Shown: piece after piece, positions 57,107 through 64,000 of the stretch
How positions within the stretch are numbered: position 1 is the stretch's first letter
Layout: every line of letters begins with the position of its first letter
Origin: Tissierellaceae bacterium
GTDB lineage: Bacteria; Bacillota; Clostridia; Tissierellales; Tissierellaceae
Assembly (NCBI GenBank): GCA_023229175.1
Contig: JALNZV010000007.1
Location: forward strand, 18,550 to 82,549
Direction of reading: 5' to 3'
DNA length: 64,000 nt
Made by a program: the position numbers and the translations under genes
The notes under the pieces: model-generated
Told to the model about the DNA's origin: nothing
Databases searched by the model: none
What the model saw: only the letters and a program-made list of their open reading frames with translations

Positions 57107-57949
57107 TTACGAATGTAAAGTATGGAGTATTTTTTCAATTAAAATCCCTTCTCTTTTAAGATAATCATATTTACAACTTTCTTTAATTCCATTTAGTATA
57201 AAGTTTACACTTTTATTTAGTGCAGTTTCAAGGCTATCATTCATTAATAAACTGCCAATAATTACACTGGTAAAAGCATCCCCTGTACCTAAGAAATTTA
57301 CATTGATGTAATCAGTTCTTACATTTAAAAATAAATCTTTAGACTTATCATATGCGTATACATTAATTTTATCATTACTCGAAATATCAGGTACACTAGT
57401 TATTATTACAATATCAGGGCCAAGATTAGATAATTTGAGCAGTATTTCCTTGATTTCAGATTCGGTGAAATTAGAAGAATATTCTTCGCCAAGCAAATAG
57501 ATAGCTTCTGTAAGATTAGGTGTGATAATATCTGCCTTGGAAACCAAAATCCTAATTTTTTCAACAAGATCCTTATTAATAGTAGGGTAAAGTTTACCTT
57601 CATCACCTAAAACAGGGTCAACCACAAGCAAGGTAAATTCAGTTTTGAAACTTTCAATAAATTTTAAGATAATGTCTACTTGATTTCCAGAACCTAAAAA
57701 TCCGCTATAGATGCAATCAAATTTTACCTGAGTCTTTTTCCAGTGTAATAAATATTCTTCCATGGTAGTTGTCAAATCTACAAAAGAAAAGTCTTTGTAT
57801 CCAGCAGTATTACTTGATAATATGGCAGTAGGAAAAGGACATACTTGAATGCCCATACATGATAGAATTGGAATTACCGCAGAAAGCGATGATCTTCCTA
57901 ACCCAGATAAATCATGGATTGCGGCAACCTTTTTAACTGGATTTTCCAT
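57107..57949 (-). CDS. pdxK: Pyridoxamine/pyridoxal kinase
   Basis: N-terminus VAAIHDLSGLGRSSLSAVIPILS, plus ribokinase-fold motifs ITPNLTEA and LGTGDAFTS. Confidence 0.85.
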   Translation of the reverse strand: MENPVKKVAAIHDLSGLGRSSLSAVIPILSCMGIQVCPFPTAILSSNTAGYKDFSFVDLTTTMEEYLLHWKKTQVKFDCIYSGFLGSGNQVDIILKFIESFKTEFTLLVVDPVLGDEGKLYPTINKDLVEKIRILVSKADIITPNLTEAIYLLGEEYSSNFTESEIKEILLKLSNLGPDIVIITSVPDISSNDKINVYAYDKSKDLFLNVRTDYINVNFLGTGDAFTSVIIGSLLMNDSLETALNKSVNFILNGIKESCKYDYLKREGILIEKILHTLHS

Positions 57950-57963
57950 GACTCCACCTCTCC

Positions 57964-58890
57964 TTATTTTAATCTATATGTCATATAATTTTTGTAGTCA
58001 ATTACTTCAATATTTTTATCAGCAGATAATCTTTTTAAAAAATTGTCAATATCTTTATTGTTTCTTTTTTCTAGAAATGTTTTGAGCTCGAATTGATTCA
58101 TGGGATGTCTCTTGATAATACTGAGTATAGCTTTATAGTCGTCTTCAATTTCGCTATAAAAACCTTCTGACACTAACTTATCAATAGATATGCCACCTAA
58201 TATGGAAATAGCCTCATTTAGGCTTTCATTAGAAGGAGGTAGCACAAAAGATTCGGCAGGTGGACGAACAGGCACATTAAGATATAATCTTTCATAGTTG
58301 ATTTTTTTCAAGATATCCTTGAGCCTTAAATAAAAGTTTTTGTTGTCGTTGATACCTTTTATAATCATAGTTTCTATCCAAAGCTGACCTTTGAAATCTT
58401 TGGAAAAGTCAATTAGACCTTCAACCATATTGTCAAATGAAATATCTCCATGTGGTCTATTAATAGTTTTAAAAGTTGATTTATCAACGGCATCTAGAGA
58501 TGGCAGTACTATATCAGCCTCCAATAAATCATCTCTTATGGATGGAATACTTAATAAAGCACCATTTGTTATTATAGCTATAGGTTTATCAGTGAATTTC
58601 TTTAGTTCCCTAATTAAATTACCTATTCCAAGATATAAAAGAGGTTCACCTTCACCTACTATGGTAATTACATCGAAATCAATGTCTTTGATAAGATACT
58701 TCTTAAACTCGCCGATAATACTCGAGAGTTCAAAAAAAGCAATCTGCTGATTAACCATTTTTTTTGTACGACCTAGTTGACAATATATACAAGAATAATT
58801 ACAATGGCCTTTAGGTATTGGACTGATGCCTAAAGATAATCCCATTCTCCTTGAAGGAACAGGACCATAGACATAATAAAAAGTTGACAT
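57964..58890 (-). CDS. Radical SAM protein (COG0731-like) with a C-terminal winged-helix-like tail
   Basis: Motifs YGPVPSRRMGLSLGI and CNYSCIYCQLG (CxxxCxxC). Confidence 0.75.
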   Translation of the reverse strand: MSTFYYVYGPVPSRRMGLSLGISPIPKGHCNYSCIYCQLGRTKKMVNQQIAFFELSSIIGEFKKYLIKDIDFDVITIVGEGEPLLYLGIGNLIRELKKFTDKPIAIITNGALLSIPSIRDDLLEADIVLPSLDAVDKSTFKTINRPHGDISFDNMVEGLIDFSKDFKGQLWIETMIIKGINDNKNFYLRLKDILKKINYERLYLNVPVRPPAESFVLPPSNESLNEAISILGGISIDKLVSEGFYSEIEDDYKAILSIIKRHPMNQFELKTFLEKRNNKDIDNFLKRLSADKNIEVIDYKNYMTYRLK

Positions 58891-59026
58891 ATAAACACCT
58901 CCGATTCAAAATGTACCAGTACAGTAATTATTGTGTACCCATCTTCTTCAAGTATACAATATTTAACTATAAAAAGTCAACTATTTCCAATCAAATAAGA
59001 TGATACTAACTATCATATGGTAATGG

Positions 59027-59055
59027 TTGTCAATTGATAACAAATAAGATATAAT
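59027..59055 (+). promoter_or_regulatory. Sigma-A-type promoter for the KaiC-like gene
   Basis: TTGTCA, 17 nt spacer, TATAAT. Confidence 0.5.
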
Positions 59056-59123
59056 AGAAACACACCTGCTAAAATTATATCAAACAGCCAAACTACATAA
59101 TAAAAAAATATGGAGGGATAGTT

Positions 59124-59888
59124 TTGAAAAATCTTAAACTAGAAGAAAAATGGCTAAATGATATGATTCCGCAAGGATTACCATATCCAAGTTCCACATT
59201 GATAAGTGGACCAGGTGGTACAGGCAAACCATTAATAGGATTTGCTTTTATCTACAATTGGCTAAGGAATGGAGGGAAAGTAATATTTGTTGCATTACAA
59301 TACCCTGATACTAGATTTGTAAGGGAAACCTTAGAAAAATTATATAATCTAAATATGGACCATTATCAAGAACGAGTGGTATATGTTCAAGCAGATTTTG
59401 AGTCTGAAGAAATGAAGGTCTTAGATGGAAATATAATAAATGTTAATCTTGCCAAGCCAGAAGTATGGCAAGAGGTAATAGATAAAGCAGAAGGCATAAT
59501 GGTTTCATCTGATGAGCAGGAGACATTAGGTACTATGGTATTTGCTGCAGCTTTAAATTTATTGCTATTTTCTCCCACATATAAAGATGTACATTTAAAA
59601 AATCTAGAAAGTTTTTTGAAAGCAAATGATGAGAAATCATACTTATTCACAGTTAGTACCACTATGTTTAAGGAAGAAATAGAAAGGTTAGAAAAGGCTG
59701 CTGACAATTTAATGTTTGCTGAGATGGGTGAGGAGATGCAGATGTATTTGGGAATTGAACGAATGGCAAATCAGGACATTGTATTAAATGAAAGGGAGGT
59801 ACCATTTGCCAAAGAGTTGCTTACGGAAATTAAGGAGATTGCCGACTACTCAAGGAAAAAGGTAATCCCAACTCTAAAAAAGATTTAA
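59124..59888 (+). CDS. KaiC/RecA-superfamily ATPase-like protein with degenerate Walker motifs
   Basis: The P-loop-like sequence SGPGGTGKPL has Pro in place of Ser/Thr after the Lys, and no clear hhhhD Walker B is visible. TTG start after a GGAGGG SD. Confidence 0.6.
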   Translation: MKNLKLEEKWLNDMIPQGLPYPSSTLISGPGGTGKPLIGFAFIYNWLRNGGKVIFVALQYPDTRFVRETLEKLYNLNMDHYQERVVYVQADFESEEMKVLDGNIINVNLAKPEVWQEVIDKAEGIMVSSDEQETLGTMVFAAALNLLLFSPTYKDVHLKNLESFLKANDEKSYLFTVSTTMFKEEIERLEKAADNLMFAEMGEEMQMYLGIERMANQDIVLNEREVPFAKELLTEIKEIADYSRKKVIPTLKKI

Positions 59889-59910
59889 TTTAAATTGACT
59901 AGGGGACACA

Positions 59911-60016
59911 CCCTTGACACAAAAGTAAAACCTACTATAATATACTAGTGTCAAGTATCACAAGAATTTTATGGGGGTAGATGGGTGCTGGTGTGCCCAC
60001 TGGTCTTCAAAACCAG
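59911..60016 (+). repeat. Direct repeat copy A: selC promoter plus the 5' half of tRNA-Sec (through the 3' side of the anticodon stem). A truncated, non-functional tRNA copy.
   Basis: 104 of 106 nt identical to 61952-62057. Identity ends right after ...CTTCAAAACCAG. Confidence 0.9.
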
Positions 60017-60143
60017 TATGACACCCTATAAACGTTGAAAAACAGCTAAATAAAAACGGCAAGAGAGGCTAAAAACCCAACTTTGACACACAATTGACAC
60101 ACCAACGACACAACGAAAAATTAATATATATTTTAATACATAA

Positions 60144-60170
60144 CCCGTCTTGTAAAAGGCGGGATTTTTT
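60144..60170 (+). terminator. Intrinsic terminator downstream of the truncated tRNA-Sec copy
   Basis: Stem CCCGTC-ttgtaaaa-GGCGGG followed by attttttatt. Confidence 0.65.
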
Positions 60171-60305
60171 ATTGTCATCCTGAGACCCACACTGTCATTC
60201 CGAGTGAAACGAGGAATCTTATCTTTTGTCGATATAACCATTTACAAAACGAATGATATATGTCAGACTATAATCGTTCAATTAATGAAGGATACAAGAG
60301 AATAG

Positions 60306-60450
60306 ATGAAATTTTTTAGTCCTACATCAGAATTAAAAGAATTATTACTATTACAACATATAGAAAAAAAATCCAGATACAACACAAAAAGAAATAGCTA
60401 ATGTAATAGATGGAGCCCCATCTATGGTCAATTATTTAGGTAGATCTATC
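60306..60450 (+). pseudogene. Fragment of a winged-helix (MarR/ROK-N-terminal-like) regulator gene, frameshifted in an A8 run
   Basis: MKFFSPTSELKELLLLQHIEK then A8 (60364-60371). One fewer A restores NPDTTQKEIANVIDGAPSMVNYL. The frame then runs into repeat sequence. Confidence 0.5.
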
Positions 60451-60583
60451 GTTGCACACCGTTATGAAACGAGGAATGAATTGTCACCTGAAAGTGCAAC
60501 GACAAATAAAACGATGGGATAATCGTTGCAAAACTATAATATTTATGGTAAGGTTATACTATAAATATTCTGGAGGTGTGTTT

Positions 60584-61858
60584 ATGGATGATAAGGAGAA
60601 ATACAACTTGGAATTCAAAGTAGAAATCACAAGAACTTTTCTGAAGACTGTCAGTGCATATGCTAATTATAATGACGGAGAAATAATATTCGGTGTTGAT
60701 GATAATGGGGACCCAGTAGGTATAAATGAAGCAAAAGATGAATCCATAAGAGTAGAGAATATGATAAATGATTCTATAGCTCCTGTTCCTAATTTCGATA
60801 TAGAAACCAGAGAGCTAGAAGGCAAGACAATTATTGCATTAATAGTAAAAAAGGGTAAGGATACGCCCTATTATTATCAAGGAAAGGCTTATAAAAGGTC
60901 TGATACTTCTACAGTAGAGGTGGATAGATTTGAGCTACGAAGGTTAGCTATAGAAGGAATAAATATGGATTATGAGGAAAGAAAAGCATCTTGTCAAGAT
61001 TTAAATTTTAATGTACTAGAATCTAAATTAAAAGAAAAGGCTGGGGTAGAAAAAGTTAATCTAGATGTTTTAAAAACCCTAAATTTATTTAGCAGAGATG
61101 GATATTACAACATCGCAGGAGAATTATTAGCGGACAGTAATAATATAGCTTTTTCAGGAATTGATATAGTGAGGTTTGGAAAAGACACTAATATAATTCT
61201 TTATAGGGAGACTATCAGTAACAAATCTTTATTGGCACAATATGATAGGGCAGTGGAGATTTTTGAACAATACTACCTATATGAAGAAATAGAAGGCTAT
61301 AAGCGAATGAAAAAGGAGCTAATACCAAGAGAAGCCTTTAGAGAATCCTTAGCTAACTCAATAGTCCATAGAGTCTGGGATATAAATTCCTATACCCAAA
61401 TAGCCATGTATGAAGACAGGATAGAAATTAATTCTCCAGGAGGATTGCCTAAGGGTATTTCGGAGGAAGAATATTTATATGGAAATATTTCAATTTTAAG
61501 AAACCCTATAATTGCAGGTGTTTTCCATAGGTTAGATATCATAGAGAAGTTTGGAACAGGTATAGCGAGAATTAATGAAGAATATACACATAGCATATCG
61601 AAACCATCTTTTGATGTAAGTGAAAACAATATAAAGATAGTTTTGCCAATTACTGAAATTGGTAAATTGAATTTAAGTGGTGATGAAATGCTTGTTTATA
61701 GAATCTTTAAAGAAGAAATTGAGCTTTCACGATCAGAGATAGACTTAAAATCTGGGTTTGAAAAGTCAAAAACCCTTAGGATTATTAGTGGTCTTATTGA
61801 TAAAAATATTATCCAGAGGATGGGTAGTGGTGCTGGAACAACTTATAGATTAAAATAA
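60584..61858 (+). CDS. AlbA_2 (Schlafen-like) DNA-binding domain / HATPase_c_4 / C-terminal wHTH protein
   Basis: N-terminus KEKYNLEFKVEI...VSAYANYNDGEIIFGVDDNGDPVGI, mid-region ANSIVHRVW...IEINSPGGLP, and C-terminus FGTGIARI. A GGAGGTG SD precedes the ATG at 60584. Confidence 0.75.
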   Translation: MDDKEKYNLEFKVEITRTFLKTVSAYANYNDGEIIFGVDDNGDPVGINEAKDESIRVENMINDSIAPVPNFDIETRELEGKTIIALIVKKGKDTPYYYQGKAYKRSDTSTVEVDRFELRRLAIEGINMDYEERKASCQDLNFNVLESKLKEKAGVEKVNLDVLKTLNLFSRDGYYNIAGELLADSNNIAFSGIDIVRFGKDTNIILYRETISNKSLLAQYDRAVEIFEQYYLYEEIEGYKRMKKELIPREAFRESLANSIVHRVWDINSYTQIAMYEDRIEINSPGGLPKGISEEEYLYGNISILRNPIIAGVFHRLDIIEKFGTGIARINEEYTHSISKPSFDVSENNIKIVLPITEIGKLNLSGDEMLVYRIFKEEIELSRSEIDLKSGFEKSKTLRIISGLIDKNIIQRMGSGAGTTYRLK

Positions 61859-61951
61859 ACTAAAAAAGCTATTAGAGCAGGAAATTGCAGAAAAGTATCA
61901 ATAGAATGTGGCAGTGGAGCATCGGGGGGAGAAAAACTGACTAAAAATCTG

Positions 61952-62057
61952 CCCTTGACACAAAAGTAAAACCTGCTATAATATACTAGTGTCAAGTATC
62001 ACAAGAATTTTATGGGAGTAGATGGGTGCTGGTGTGCCCACTGGTCTTCAAAACCAG
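61952..62057 (+). repeat. Direct repeat copy B (the functional selC promoter and tRNA 5' half)
   Basis: See 59911-60016. Confidence 0.9.
61955..61982 (+). promoter_or_regulatory. selC promoter
   Basis: TTGACA, 16 nt spacer, TATAAT. It is bracketed by the inverted repeat CTTGACAC/GTGTCAAG. Confidence 0.65.
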
Positions 62058-62110
62058 CTTGAGGCGTTAGGAGCGTCTTAGGTGAGTTCGATTCTCACAT
62101 ACTCCCGCCA
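62014..62110 (+). tRNA. selC: tRNA-Sec (anticodon UCA), CCA encoded
   Basis: Sequence GGGAGTAGATGGGTGCTGGTGTGCCCACTGGTCTTCAAAACCAGCTTGAGGCGTTAGGAGCGTCTTAGGTGAGTTCGATTCTCACATACTCCCGCCA. It has a long acceptor and D stems, a long variable arm and anticodon loop CUUCAAA. Confidence 0.92.
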
Positions 62111-62139
62111 CAAGAAAAAAGCGACCTAGGTCGCTTTTT
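62092..62139 (+). repeat. Direct repeat copy 1: last 19 nt of tRNA-Sec plus its terminator
   Basis: 47 of 48 nt identical to 62729-62776. Confidence 0.9.
62114..62139 (+). terminator. selC terminator
   Basis: Hairpin aaaaaagcgacc-tagg-tcgcttttt. Confidence 0.85.
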
Positions 62140-62192
62140 AATCATTTTCGCCATTGTATATTAAATGTCTTATAAAACTAAGTGAGTTTCAA

Positions 62193-62597
62193 TTAATTAT
62201 CTAGTCCTAGATATTCTTTTAAAGCTGATTGCAAAACTTGAGAGAAATTAACTTTATTTTCTTCTGCAAGTTTGTTAAGCCATTGAGGAATAGTTAATGT
62301 TTTCTTTACAGATAGGTTTTCTATGGCGGGGCGAATTAAGGGCATATAAACTTCAACTAATACTGCCCTTTGATTTATGTCTAAGGGTACCTTATTTAAA
62401 GGAGTAGGGTCGGGAATTTCATCGCTGTCATCTTCAAGGCCATATAAATGAAGACCCATGGCATCCTTGGCCATATACATAGCTTCTTCATCTGTATCTG
62501 CACAAGAAAAACATCCAGGTAGATCGGGGAACGAAACTGATATTCCATCATCATCATAATTAAATACTGCTGGATACATATATTTGTCTTTTTTCAT
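62193..62597 (-). CDS. hicB: HicB-family antitoxin (RHH/CopG-like C-terminus)
   Basis: N-terminus MKKDKYMYPAVFNYDDDGISVSFPDLPGCFSCADTDEEAMYMAKDAMGLHL. An AAGGAG SD precedes the ATG at 62597. Confidence 0.85.
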   Translation of the reverse strand: MKKDKYMYPAVFNYDDDGISVSFPDLPGCFSCADTDEEAMYMAKDAMGLHLYGLEDDSDEIPDPTPLNKVPLDINQRAVLVEVYMPLIRPAIENLSVKKTLTIPQWLNKLAEENKVNFSQVLQSALKEYLGLDN

Positions 62598-62637
62598 TAC
62601 AGGTCTCCTTTCTCTTAAAATTCGAAAGCAAAAGGAA

Positions 62638-62688
62638 CTAATCTTTGATATCAATTCCTGCTTGTTTTAAAATGCTAAAAACTGTATT
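62638..62688 (-). pseudogene. hicA: Relic 3' end of hicA toxin gene (16 codons)
   Basis: Reads NTVFSILKQAGIDIKD* directly upstream of hicB. ILKQAGI is the characteristic HicA C-terminus. An in-frame TGA lies immediately upstream. Confidence 0.6.
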
Positions 62689-62693
62689 TCAAC

Positions 62694-62722
62694 ATTATAA
62701 CACGTATAAAAATACGTGTCAA
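62694..62722 (-). promoter_or_regulatory. Promoter with embedded perfect palindromic operator
   Basis: Minus strand: TTGACA, 17 nt spacer, TATAAT. The palindrome ACACGTAT-nnnn-ATACGTGT (62700-62719) runs from the last three bases of the -35 hexamer through the spacer to one base short of the -10. Confidence 0.65.
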
Positions 62723-62728
62723 TCAATT

Positions 62729-62776
62729 TTCTCACATACTCCCGCCACAACAAAAAAGCGACCTAGGTCGCTTTTT
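62729..62776 (+). repeat. Direct repeat copy 2 of the selC 3' end plus terminator
   Basis: See 62092-62139. Confidence 0.9.
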
Positions 62777-64000
62777 TATACTACGAGTGCTCTTTTATCA
62801 GAGAATTTCTCGTAAGTTTTTTCTGTAACTATTTCTTCCAATATATCCACTACCTTGTGTACATCTTCAAAAGAATTATATAGGGCAACAGGTGCAAGCC
62901 TTATGACATTTGGCTCACGGAAATCAGGTATTACATTTTTTTCCTTTAGTGCCAAGCTAATTCTATAAGCATCGTCGTGCTCAAGGGCGATATGTCCACC
63001 ACGTCTATTGTGATCCTTTAAGGTGCCATTTTTGAAACCATATTTCTCTAATCTATTTTCAATCAAGAAAACTAAATAGTCCGTTAAGAATAAAGACTTC
63101 TCTCGAATATTATGGATGCCAGCCGCATTAAATAGTTTAAGAACTCCCTCAATAGGTGCCATGGACAGCATATTGGGTGTACCAGTAAGCCATGCATCTG
63201 CGTCAAGCTCTGGGTCGTGTCTGTGATCCATTAAAAATTGAGATTCTTTTTTGTTTCCAAACCAACCAGCCAAACCAGGGTCAGTGCCAAAATGTTTCTT
63301 GTTTATATAAAGGGCTGCATTGGAGCCAGGTCCACCGGACAAATGCTTGTAAGTACACCATACAGCAAAGTCAGGGTCGACCTTTTTAAAATCGTGGGGT
63401 ACAGAACCAATAGAATGACTTAAATCCCAACCTACGATTATTCCCTTGTCATGACCTGCCTTTGTCAATCTCTCCATATCAAGTAGCTGGGCAGATCTGT
63501 AGAGCACACTTGGCAATAGAGCTACTGCAACATCGTCTGTCATAGCCTCTATTATATCATCCTCTTCGATATTTCTCCCGTCCCTGGATTTTACCACTTT
63601 AATAGCTTTATCTGGGTCCAAGCCATGTAACTTAACTTGGCTAGCTACTGCATGGGCATCAGATGGAAAATTCAACTCATCGACTAAAATCTTATATCTC
63701 TCTCCAGTTGGTCTGTAAAATGTAGCTAGAGCAGAATGTATATTCATAGTAGTATTGTTGGTAATTGTGATTTCATTTTCGTCAGCATTGACAAGTGGTG
63801 CAGATAGGCCGCCTAAATACTGAGGGTACTTGAAATACTTGCCGTCCTTTACATTCCATATAAGGATTTTTTCTTTTTTCCATACATCTAACATTTCCAG
63901 TAAGCTTTCCTCAGCGTCCTTGGAGCAAGCACCTAAGGAATTTCCGTCAAAATATAATTCACCTTCACCTAAATAAAATCGTTCCCTGTAGGATTTCAGT
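62776..64000 (-). CDS. kynU: Kynureninase (PLP-dependent); the N-terminus lies beyond the window end
   Basis: Motifs FAVWCTYKHLSGGPGS (PLP Lys), LYFDGNSLG and WLTGTPN. The frame stays open upstream of the listed Met to position 64000 (..LKSYRERFYLGEGELYFDGNSLGACSKD..). Confidence 0.85.
   Translation of the reverse strand, partial: LKSYRERFYLGEGELYFDGNSLGACSKDAEESLLEMLDVWKKEKILIWNVKDGKYFKYPQYLGGLSAPLVNADENEITITNNTTMNIHSALATFYRPTGERYKILVDELNFPSDAHAVASQVKLHGLDPDKAIKVVKSRDGRNIEEDDIIEAMTDDVAVALLPSVLYRSAQLLDMERLTKAGHDKGIIVGWDLSHSIGSVPHDFKKVDPDFAVWCTYKHLSGGPGSNAALYINKKHFGTDPGLAGWFGNKKESQFLMDHRHDPELDADAWLTGTPNMLSMAPIEGVLKLFNAAGIHNIREKSLFLTDYLVFLIENRLEKYGFKNGTLKDHNRRGGHIALEHDDAYRISLALKEKNVIPDFREPNVIRLAPVALYNSFEDVHKVVDILEEIVTEKTYEKFSDKRALVV

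Follow-up and report, generated by a model that had tools for sequence, protein, structure and literature searches.

How does a genome come to hold two copies of the promoter and first half of its selenocysteine tRNA gene (tRNA-Sec, selC), of which one alone continues into a whole gene? The question is raised by a 64,000-nucleotide stretch of contig JALNZV010000007.1 (assembly GCA_023229175.1, positions 18,550 to 82,549; hereafter, the window) from a Tissierellaceae bacterium, an AT-rich member of the Clostridia from the same order as Caloranaerobacter, known from a metagenome-assembled genome (MAG) of 71 contigs. Here, 106-bp direct repeats bracket a 1.9-kb islet, and we consider it highly probable that this islet is the decayed remnant of an element integrated by a tyrosine integrase at the anticodon stem-loop of tRNA-Sec. 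Carrying this reading are the repeats themselves, the single intact tRNA, an arm sequence conserved beyond the left junction, and integrase-bearing elements that occupy the same target with the same polarity in related genomes.

The tRNA-Sec gene and its duplicated 5′ half

An initial annotation made from the letters of the window (hereafter, the sequence-only reading) had described the two repeats as identical at 104 of 106 nucleotides, and direct comparison returns the same figure; a repeat search lists the same pair as 111 nt at 96% identity. One mismatch lies in the promoter spacer (59934 A vs 61975 G) and the other at tRNA nucleotide 4 (59976 G vs 62017 A). As had also been described, each copy comprises a selC promoter (TTGACA, 16 nt, TATAAT; score 12/12 in both), a leader of about 31 nt, and tRNA-Sec nucleotides 1–44, and the identity stops after ..AACCAG (60016 / 62057), on the 3′ side of the anticodon stem. 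The claim that the right copy alone is intact agrees with ARAGORN, which calls a single tRNA-Sec, and with Rfam model RF01852, which scores this gene at 72 bits (E = 8e-14; gathering score 47) vs just 32 bits for the left copy, where the variable arm and T arm are missing. The whole genome holds exactly these two copies of the tRNA-Sec 5′ half. The left junction and the islet are reproduced in an independent metagenome contig, L039, which is 99.2% identical over positions 59000–61894 of the window.

Integrase-bearing elements at the same site in relatives

The whole structure is present on one molecule in Tissierella sp. Yu-01 (complete genome CP120677.1), which carries a 10.2-kb element. On the host side, selB and a response regulator gene are followed by a host-type promoter with tRNA-Sec nucleotides 1–39, and then by an arm. 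The element continues with genes for a DNA methylase, RadC, DUF960, a DUF927 primase-helicase, an HTH_17 xis-like protein, and an integrase, beyond which come the right arm and then the full tRNA-Sec behind a different promoter. Nucleotide 22 is the only difference between the 39-nt repeats of Yu-01, which places the crossover between nucleotides 23 and 39. The Yu-01 integrase is 75% identical to P0001, the tyrosine integrase of Caloranaerobacter azorensis DSM 13643 (G085), which lies behind a Prim-Pol/D5 gene. About 140 nt separate the end of this integrase gene from the promoter of the full tRNA-Sec, which lies downstream on the same strand. In C. azorensis the truncated copy is on a separate contig, ahead of an arm, an MNT/HEPN pair, and DUF1643, a content also found on the integrase-bearing contigs L046 and L047. 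The order integrase, promoter, tRNA-Sec is shared by Geosporobacter ferrireducens and two metagenome contigs.

Full-length homologues of P0001 are about 388 amino acids long, with Arm-DNA-bind_4, SAM-like, and catalytic domains. Those at least 59% identical lie upstream of tRNA-Sec in the same orientation in five of five cases. Two homologues that are about 50% identical, from Lutisporaceae and Pelotomaculum MAGs, instead adjoin a tRNA-Ser gene that lies on the other strand and points its 3′ end at the integrase gene. The sequence-only reading had proposed for the window that a tyrosine-integrase element entered the anticodon region, and relatives that have an integrase at this target and junction support it.

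Recurrence and decay across the order

A pattern for tRNA-Sec nucleotides 1–39, run over 401 genomes of the order, matches 150. Two 5′ halves are present in six of these (the window's genome, G024, G032, G085, G145, and G158), and in all six the extra copy is a promoter plus a 5′ half that ends at the anticodon loop or stem, upholding the claim that the element brings the promoter and 5′ half. Five genomes of the same genus have one copy each, so the duplication is not ancestral, an arrangement that would have spoken against an insertion.

The position of the crossover and the origin of the promoter can be read from these cases. The identity of the 5′ halves ends in the loop, at nucleotide 39, in G032, G085, G024, and Tissierella. 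By eye, the two promoters have clearly diverged in G032, G145, G158, and Tissierella sp. Yu-01, with nucleotides 1–39 identical or one base apart, which is what a foreign, element-borne promoter would give. Single mismatches at nucleotide 15 in G145 and nucleotide 22 in Tissierella place the crossover between nucleotides 16–23 and nucleotide 39, that is, in the anticodon stem-loop.

In G032, a 73-amino-acid integrase C-terminus (53% identical, E = 9e-19) remains beside the truncated copy. The right arm is homologous to that of C. azorensis, and arm and integrase remnant lie upstream of the truncated copy, not of the full copy, an arrangement that suggests two elements inserted in tandem, followed by decay. 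The 5.4-kb islet of this genome holds a two-component system and an ABC transporter and no integrase. Surviving cargo in L019 (G032:C100, 5436–11375) consists of a response regulator, a histidine kinase, an ABC ATPase, and an FtsX permease. In G145, a 16.3-kb segment separates the truncated copy from the second 5′ half (L024; G145:C40, 292–16686). Its genes are metabolic (PFOR, IclR, M24 peptidase, BenE, QRPTase, and others), its end resembles, by eye, a TnpB-like gene fragment, and no integrase was found among ten of its open reading frames (ORFs) scanned against Pfam. The 3′-fragment polarity also occurs at tRNA-Sec, as an island with integrase in G035 and as an extra 3′ fragment in G039.

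The locus differs further in G001, a genome of the same genus, where the tRNA-Sec promoter is quite different and the 3′ flank is rearranged. Upstream, the PdxK-like kinase and radical SAM genes that lie between the LysM and KaiC-like genes of the window (57107–58890) are missing at this place (L016), an insertion or deletion adjoining an island-prone tRNA-Sec locus. Downstream, where the window has genes for a kynureninase and an Lrp-type regulator before the next gene after tRNA-Sec, G001 has only the last ~45 nt of the Lrp gene (L015, G001:C57, 5259–5330, compared with window 64680–64730, L023 ~1230–1280). These genes were therefore deleted or moved, and they are present on contig C10 of G001.

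An arm shared with another family

The sequence that follows the left copy is 87–88% identical to G158:C502, and the match, with the promoter and the start of a regulator gene included, extends over 554 nt at 83%. The arm is 82–83% identical to G102:C65, and its identity to three metagenome contigs is 86–87%. The family of G158 and G102 (f4) is not that of the window's genome, and at the protein level PdxK of G102 is 61% identical to its orthologue in the window. Identities of 82–88% over 160–550 non-coding nucleotides at the same junction, set against this figure, imply that the sequence is the arm of an element that has spread horizontally. In alignment A2, the arm of the window groups with those of G158 and G102 (type 1) and not with those of C. 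azorensis, G032, and Tissierella (type 2). Searches for the type-1 arm covered 401 genomes from the order, 399 from the class, and the full set of 25 from family f4, and matched it in G158, G102, and, partially, G118 only. A metagenome scan added a near-identical contig and three more in which an rve transposase ORF lies directly against the arm.

In these last contigs (L037 2040–2100; also L036 and L038) the type-1 arm starts at CAAAACCAG and there is no tRNA 5′ half. Upstream, ..TTGGTCT.. is loosely like the anticodon stem, and the place may be a secondary integration site. In the window, the left copy is followed by ATGACACCC (59973–60026 in all), able to pair as a shortened acceptor stem; Rfam aligns this stretch end to end with a 36-nt internal deletion at the 32 bits given above, and the start of the type-1 arm may be a relic of the 3′ strand of a tRNA.

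Other interpretations of the arm were set aside. RNAalifold on six arms gave no compensatory pair beyond the terminator, with a fold z-score of −1.6, so that a structured RNA was rejected. PdxK and radical SAM genes also lie near the truncated copy of G102, as host DNA would have them, yet the two sets of radical SAM genes are unrelated, and conservation of the arm far exceeds that of the coding orthologues; we therefore rejected a host origin. A ~25-nt A/T-rich stretch common to G102 and the region upstream of the full copy of G158 was judged not to be related to the element.

Contents of the islet

The features of the islet and its surroundings are listed in Table 1.

Table 1. Coordinates of features at the tRNA-Sec locus of the window.
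Feature	Position	Strand	Details
Left repeat (attL side): displaced promoter, leader, tRNA-Sec nt 1–44; putative original host copy	59911–60016	+	TTGACA 59914–59919, TATAAT 59936–59941, nt 1–44 at 59973–60016
Putative type-1 element arm, non-coding	60017–60176	+	GACACA repeats at 60085, 60096, 60107 in 11-nt phase; intrinsic terminator
Winged-helix regulator gene: promoter region and first ~40 codons, frameshifted, truncated	60234–60432	+	
SLFN_AlbA_2 + HATPase_c_4 protein, 424 aa; sole intact cargo gene	60584–61858	+	Pfam 1.6e-21, 4.9e-20
Gene-tail remnant, 58 nt; candidate Rpn-type gene tail	61855–61911	+	98% identical to end of G001:C103
Right repeat (attR side): promoter, leader, tRNA-Sec nt 1–44; putatively element-borne	61952–62057	+	TTGACA 61955–61960
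Intact tRNA-Sec, anticodon TCA	62014–62110	+	ARAGORN; Rfam 72 bits
Proximal copy of second repeat: last 19 nt (from T loop) and terminator hairpin	62092–62142	+	
HicB-like antitoxin gene, only ORF of 586-nt 3′ islet	62193–62654	-	Pfam HicB_lk_antitox, E = 3.4e-15
Distal copy of second repeat: displaced ancestral 3′ end and terminator	62729–62779	+	

Within the type-1 arm, an intrinsic terminator is formed by a stem at 60144–60163 and a T run. The regulator gene that follows is broken in the window; its start is intact in G158 (L030, from 2195), the gene is complete in L037 (2329–2940), and the homology with relatives through the regulator start ends where the fragment does. Short repeats that recur in many genomes flank the fragment (e.g., 60192–60221). 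The one intact cargo gene draws weak hits only from PADLOC, and it has homologues of 70–74% nucleotide identity at other loci in G013, G018, and G021.

The gene-tail remnant sits where an integrase and a right arm would be expected. At G001:C103, similar coding-like sequence runs on beyond the counterpart of the 58-nt match, and after this comparison, and a tblastn search with P0001, we rejected the match as an integrase remnant; the tail of an Rpn-type gene is a candidate. Upstream of the islet, a KaiC-like ATPase gene follows the same MatE and LysM genes as in G001 and is therefore host DNA.

No integrase ORF or remnant was found in the islet by Pfam searches of its ORFs or by tblastn with P0001 (E up to 10), and the closest integrase to P0001 in the genome is 33% identical and lies on another contig (C57). 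The earlier view that no integrase is left and that the islet is fixed is in keeping with this absence, which suggests a decayed and probably immobile remnant.

Formation of the islet and competing explanations

The attachment site of the incoming element (attP) would have carried a promoter, a leader, and the first ~39–44 nt of tRNA-Sec. Integration would have stranded the host promoter and 5′ half upstream, as the left repeat, and joined the promoter and 5′ half of the element, the right repeat, to the host 3′ half to give a working chimeric gene; the terminator in the left arm would halt transcripts from the stranded promoter. An integrase like those of the relatives would once have been part of the islet and, with the right arm, would have been lost later, leaving the Schlafen/AlbA_2-type gene, the broken regulator gene, and the gene-tail fragment in a fixed islet. 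Which copy is host-derived we infer by analogy: the left repeat would correspond to the host copy in Tissierella sp. Yu-01, and the polarity of intact elements points to the right repeat, now driving the working gene, as element-borne.

Several observations weigh against an integrase-mediated origin. The two copies in the window are 98% identical with the promoter included, unlike those of most intact relatives; gene conversion over the homologous stretch, or a donor with a near-identical promoter, probably accounts for this. The sequence-only reading had suggested a search for integrase-bearing relatives of the islet, and elements with the same target and polarity were found, but none has a type-1 arm: the intact integrase-bearing examples all have the non-homologous type-2 arm, no integrase is linked to the type-1 arm in G158, G102, G118, or the metagenome contigs, and a scan of viral contigs was empty. 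This absence is the weakest point of the case for integration. No syntenic empty site was found, the tRNA-Sec loci of the five same-genus genomes being without the flanking genes of the window, and the right junction is seen in this MAG contig only.

The near-identity of the copies throughout, promoter included, and its abrupt end on both sides are also what a single crossover gives. Together with the lack of an integrase in the islet, they would fit a Campbell-type insertion, in which RecA recombined the chromosome with a circular DNA bearing a ~106-nt copy of the promoter and 5′ half from the same species, with no integrase involved. We regard this course of events as improbable, because every independent case joins at the anticodon stem-loop, even with 39 nt shared and promoters differing, because the conserved arm beyond the junction is common to another family, and because integrase-bearing elements of the same geometry exist.

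A recent local tandem duplication of the tRNA-Sec region, with the left 3′ half deleted, genes gained later, and no mobile element, would also leave near-identical copies. It is very hard to reconcile with the homology of the left 420 nt of the islet to sequence at this junction in metagenomes and in genomes of other families, with the independent recurrence of the same truncation point, or with the single copies of the same-genus genomes. A chimeric join of the contig through the 106-nt repeat might be suspected in a 71-contig MAG, the more so since related assemblies and contig L039 break at or near the repeat, and it is equally implausible, given that the junction from truncated copy to arm is novel rather than repeat-mediated and is seen again in L039, and that both copies stand on one contig in G032, in G145, and in the complete Tissierella genome. 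It is the recurrence of this junction in other genomes and in L039 that makes both duplication and assembly error unlikely. The integration of an element, since decayed, is the preferred explanation.

A second islet and a probable mosaic gene

The 3′ end of the gene is duplicated as well. The proximal and distal copies of a second repeat, identical at 49 of 51 positions, each contain the last 19 nt of tRNA-Sec, from T loop to CCA, and its terminator, and they enclose the hicB gene. Downstream of the distal copy, the sequence (TTTTTTATAC.ACGA) agrees with that flanking the single tRNA-Sec of G001, and the flank of the proximal copy does not, which argues that the distal copy is ancestral and the proximal 3′ end and terminator were imported; the proximal copy would thus have come with the 3′ islet. 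The arrangement (62092–62779) is that by which classic 3′-fragment islands in tRNA genes (tDNA) are recognized, with the 3′ fragment downstream, in the same orientation, and identity from the T loop. No integrase was found by Pfam among the ORFs of this islet, which by its sequence has the character of a decayed island remnant of classic 3′ polarity with a T-loop junction.

The working tRNA-Sec is thus probably a three-part mosaic, in which the promoter and nucleotides 1 to about 39–44 would come from one element, the middle of the gene from the host, and the last 19 nt with the terminator from a second element.

Relation to known integrative elements

The sequence-only reading had called the polarity of the first islet opposite to the usual one. 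The polarity is supported here but not unprecedented: Table 1 of the Islander survey (Hudson, Lau and Williams, 2015; PMC4383910) has 159 islands marked by a 5′ tDNA fragment and 3760 in which the fragment comes from the 3′ end, so the 5′ polarity is rare (about 4%) but catalogued, not new. A 5′ fragment lying upstream of the tDNA passes the Islander filters, and crossovers centred on the anticodon form one of two main classes among its islands (PMC4383910). The window resembles this class in that an intact tDNA and a same-orientation end fragment bracket the islet (104/106, both on the + strand), the 5′ fragment (59973–60016) lies upstream of the intact gene, and the crossover is at the canonical anticodon sublocation. 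Unlike Islander islands, the islet is without the required integrase and falls below the 2-kb length filter, and it would not be called. We file it as a decayed remnant of the Islander 5′ class, not as a functional member. Beyond Table 1 of that survey (PMC4383910), we found little on 5′-end integration into tRNA genes in the literature, and neither a tRNA-Sec element family of this polarity in Clostridia nor its integrase clade was found in the literature searched.

The closest likeness is to the elements of the P0001 clade in Tissierella sp. Yu-01, C. azorensis, and G. ferrireducens, which share with the islet the tRNA-Sec target, the 5′ polarity, the anticodon-loop junction, an element-borne promoter, and a terminator-like hairpin in the arm beside the stranded copy. 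They differ in being ~10 kb long with an integrase (about 388 amino acids, Arm-DNA-bind_4), an HTH_17 xis-like gene, and a primase-helicase module, whereas the window has no P0001 homologue of at least about 59% identity upstream of the promoter and no type-2 left arm. The tRNA-Ser sister integrases (about 50% identical) are of the same lineage as the tRNA-Sec clade and share with it G/C-rich repeats in the integrase-adjacent arm and a tRNA-proximal integrase gene. They differ in polarity, which is the classic one: the tRNA gene lies on the other strand, 3′ end toward the integrase gene. From this comparison, the tRNA-Sec integrase clade looks like a flipped derivative. The tRNA-Ser regions concerned are L048 3700–3931 and L049 5200–5500, and their arm repeats are GCCGTCG-like.

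Enterobacterial islands such as LEE, SHI-2, and the retronphage phiR73 use selC as their attachment site; they restore the 3′ end of selC, need no promoter, and belong to a different phylum. The parallel drawn earlier with these islands holds for the gene and is otherwise an analogy only, the present organism being an AT-rich member of the Clostridia. The cis-mobilizable elements (CIMEs) of Streptococcus thermophilus are integrase-less, att-flanked remnants of integrative and conjugative elements (ICEs), in which both att sites are functional and which can be mobilised by a resident ICE. The islet is like a CIME in that direct att repeats flank cargo without a recombinase. It is unlike one in that, with the left arm conserved, the right arm appears replaced by the unrelated gene tail upstream of the right promoter, and in that the genome has no cognate integrase. 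Finally, dusA-specific integrase islands are reported to enter the 5′ end of their target, which the element must rebuild (PMC4482086); the target is protein-coding, the hosts are Proteobacteria, and the integrase family is unrelated.

Promoter architecture and implications

Both promoters of the window (59913–59955, 61954–61996) contain an 8-bp inverted repeat (CTTGACAC / GTGTCAAG) whose span takes in the −35 box and start region. Its GACAC core recurs at the three phased positions in the left arm (Table 1) and once just beyond the left repeat, at 59905. In the promoters beside the full tRNA-Sec of C. azorensis, G014, and others, inverted repeats in a similar arrangement are seen by eye, and similar-looking promoters drive the sole tRNA-Sec in several families of the order. 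The promoters of the host-side attL copies (Tissierella, G102) and of the single copy in G001 look different.

With GACAC in both the promoter and the left arm, the promoter could double as the P arm of the element. We tentatively raise the possibility, doubtful as it is, that binding of the integrase or excision factor to such a promoter controls the transcription of tRNA-Sec, and that elements have repeatedly replaced the native selC promoter and so taken over the control of selenoprotein synthesis. It is also possible that the stranded promoter, 5′ half, arm, and terminator are kept as a chimeric small RNA.

Elements in tRNA genes nearly always rebuild the 3′ end and need no promoter. The tRNA-Sec family rebuilds the 5′ end and must therefore carry the promoter of its target, and it forms a clean, sequence-defined family; together with the tRNA-Ser sisters of ordinary polarity, it offers a tractable pair for asking what sets the polarity of integration. 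For annotation, promoter-bearing 5′ fragments of tRNA genes mark the ends of islands that integrase-dependent finders miss. For the organism, the locus suggests that an essential gene for selenoprotein decoding can become a mosaic transcribed from foreign DNA.

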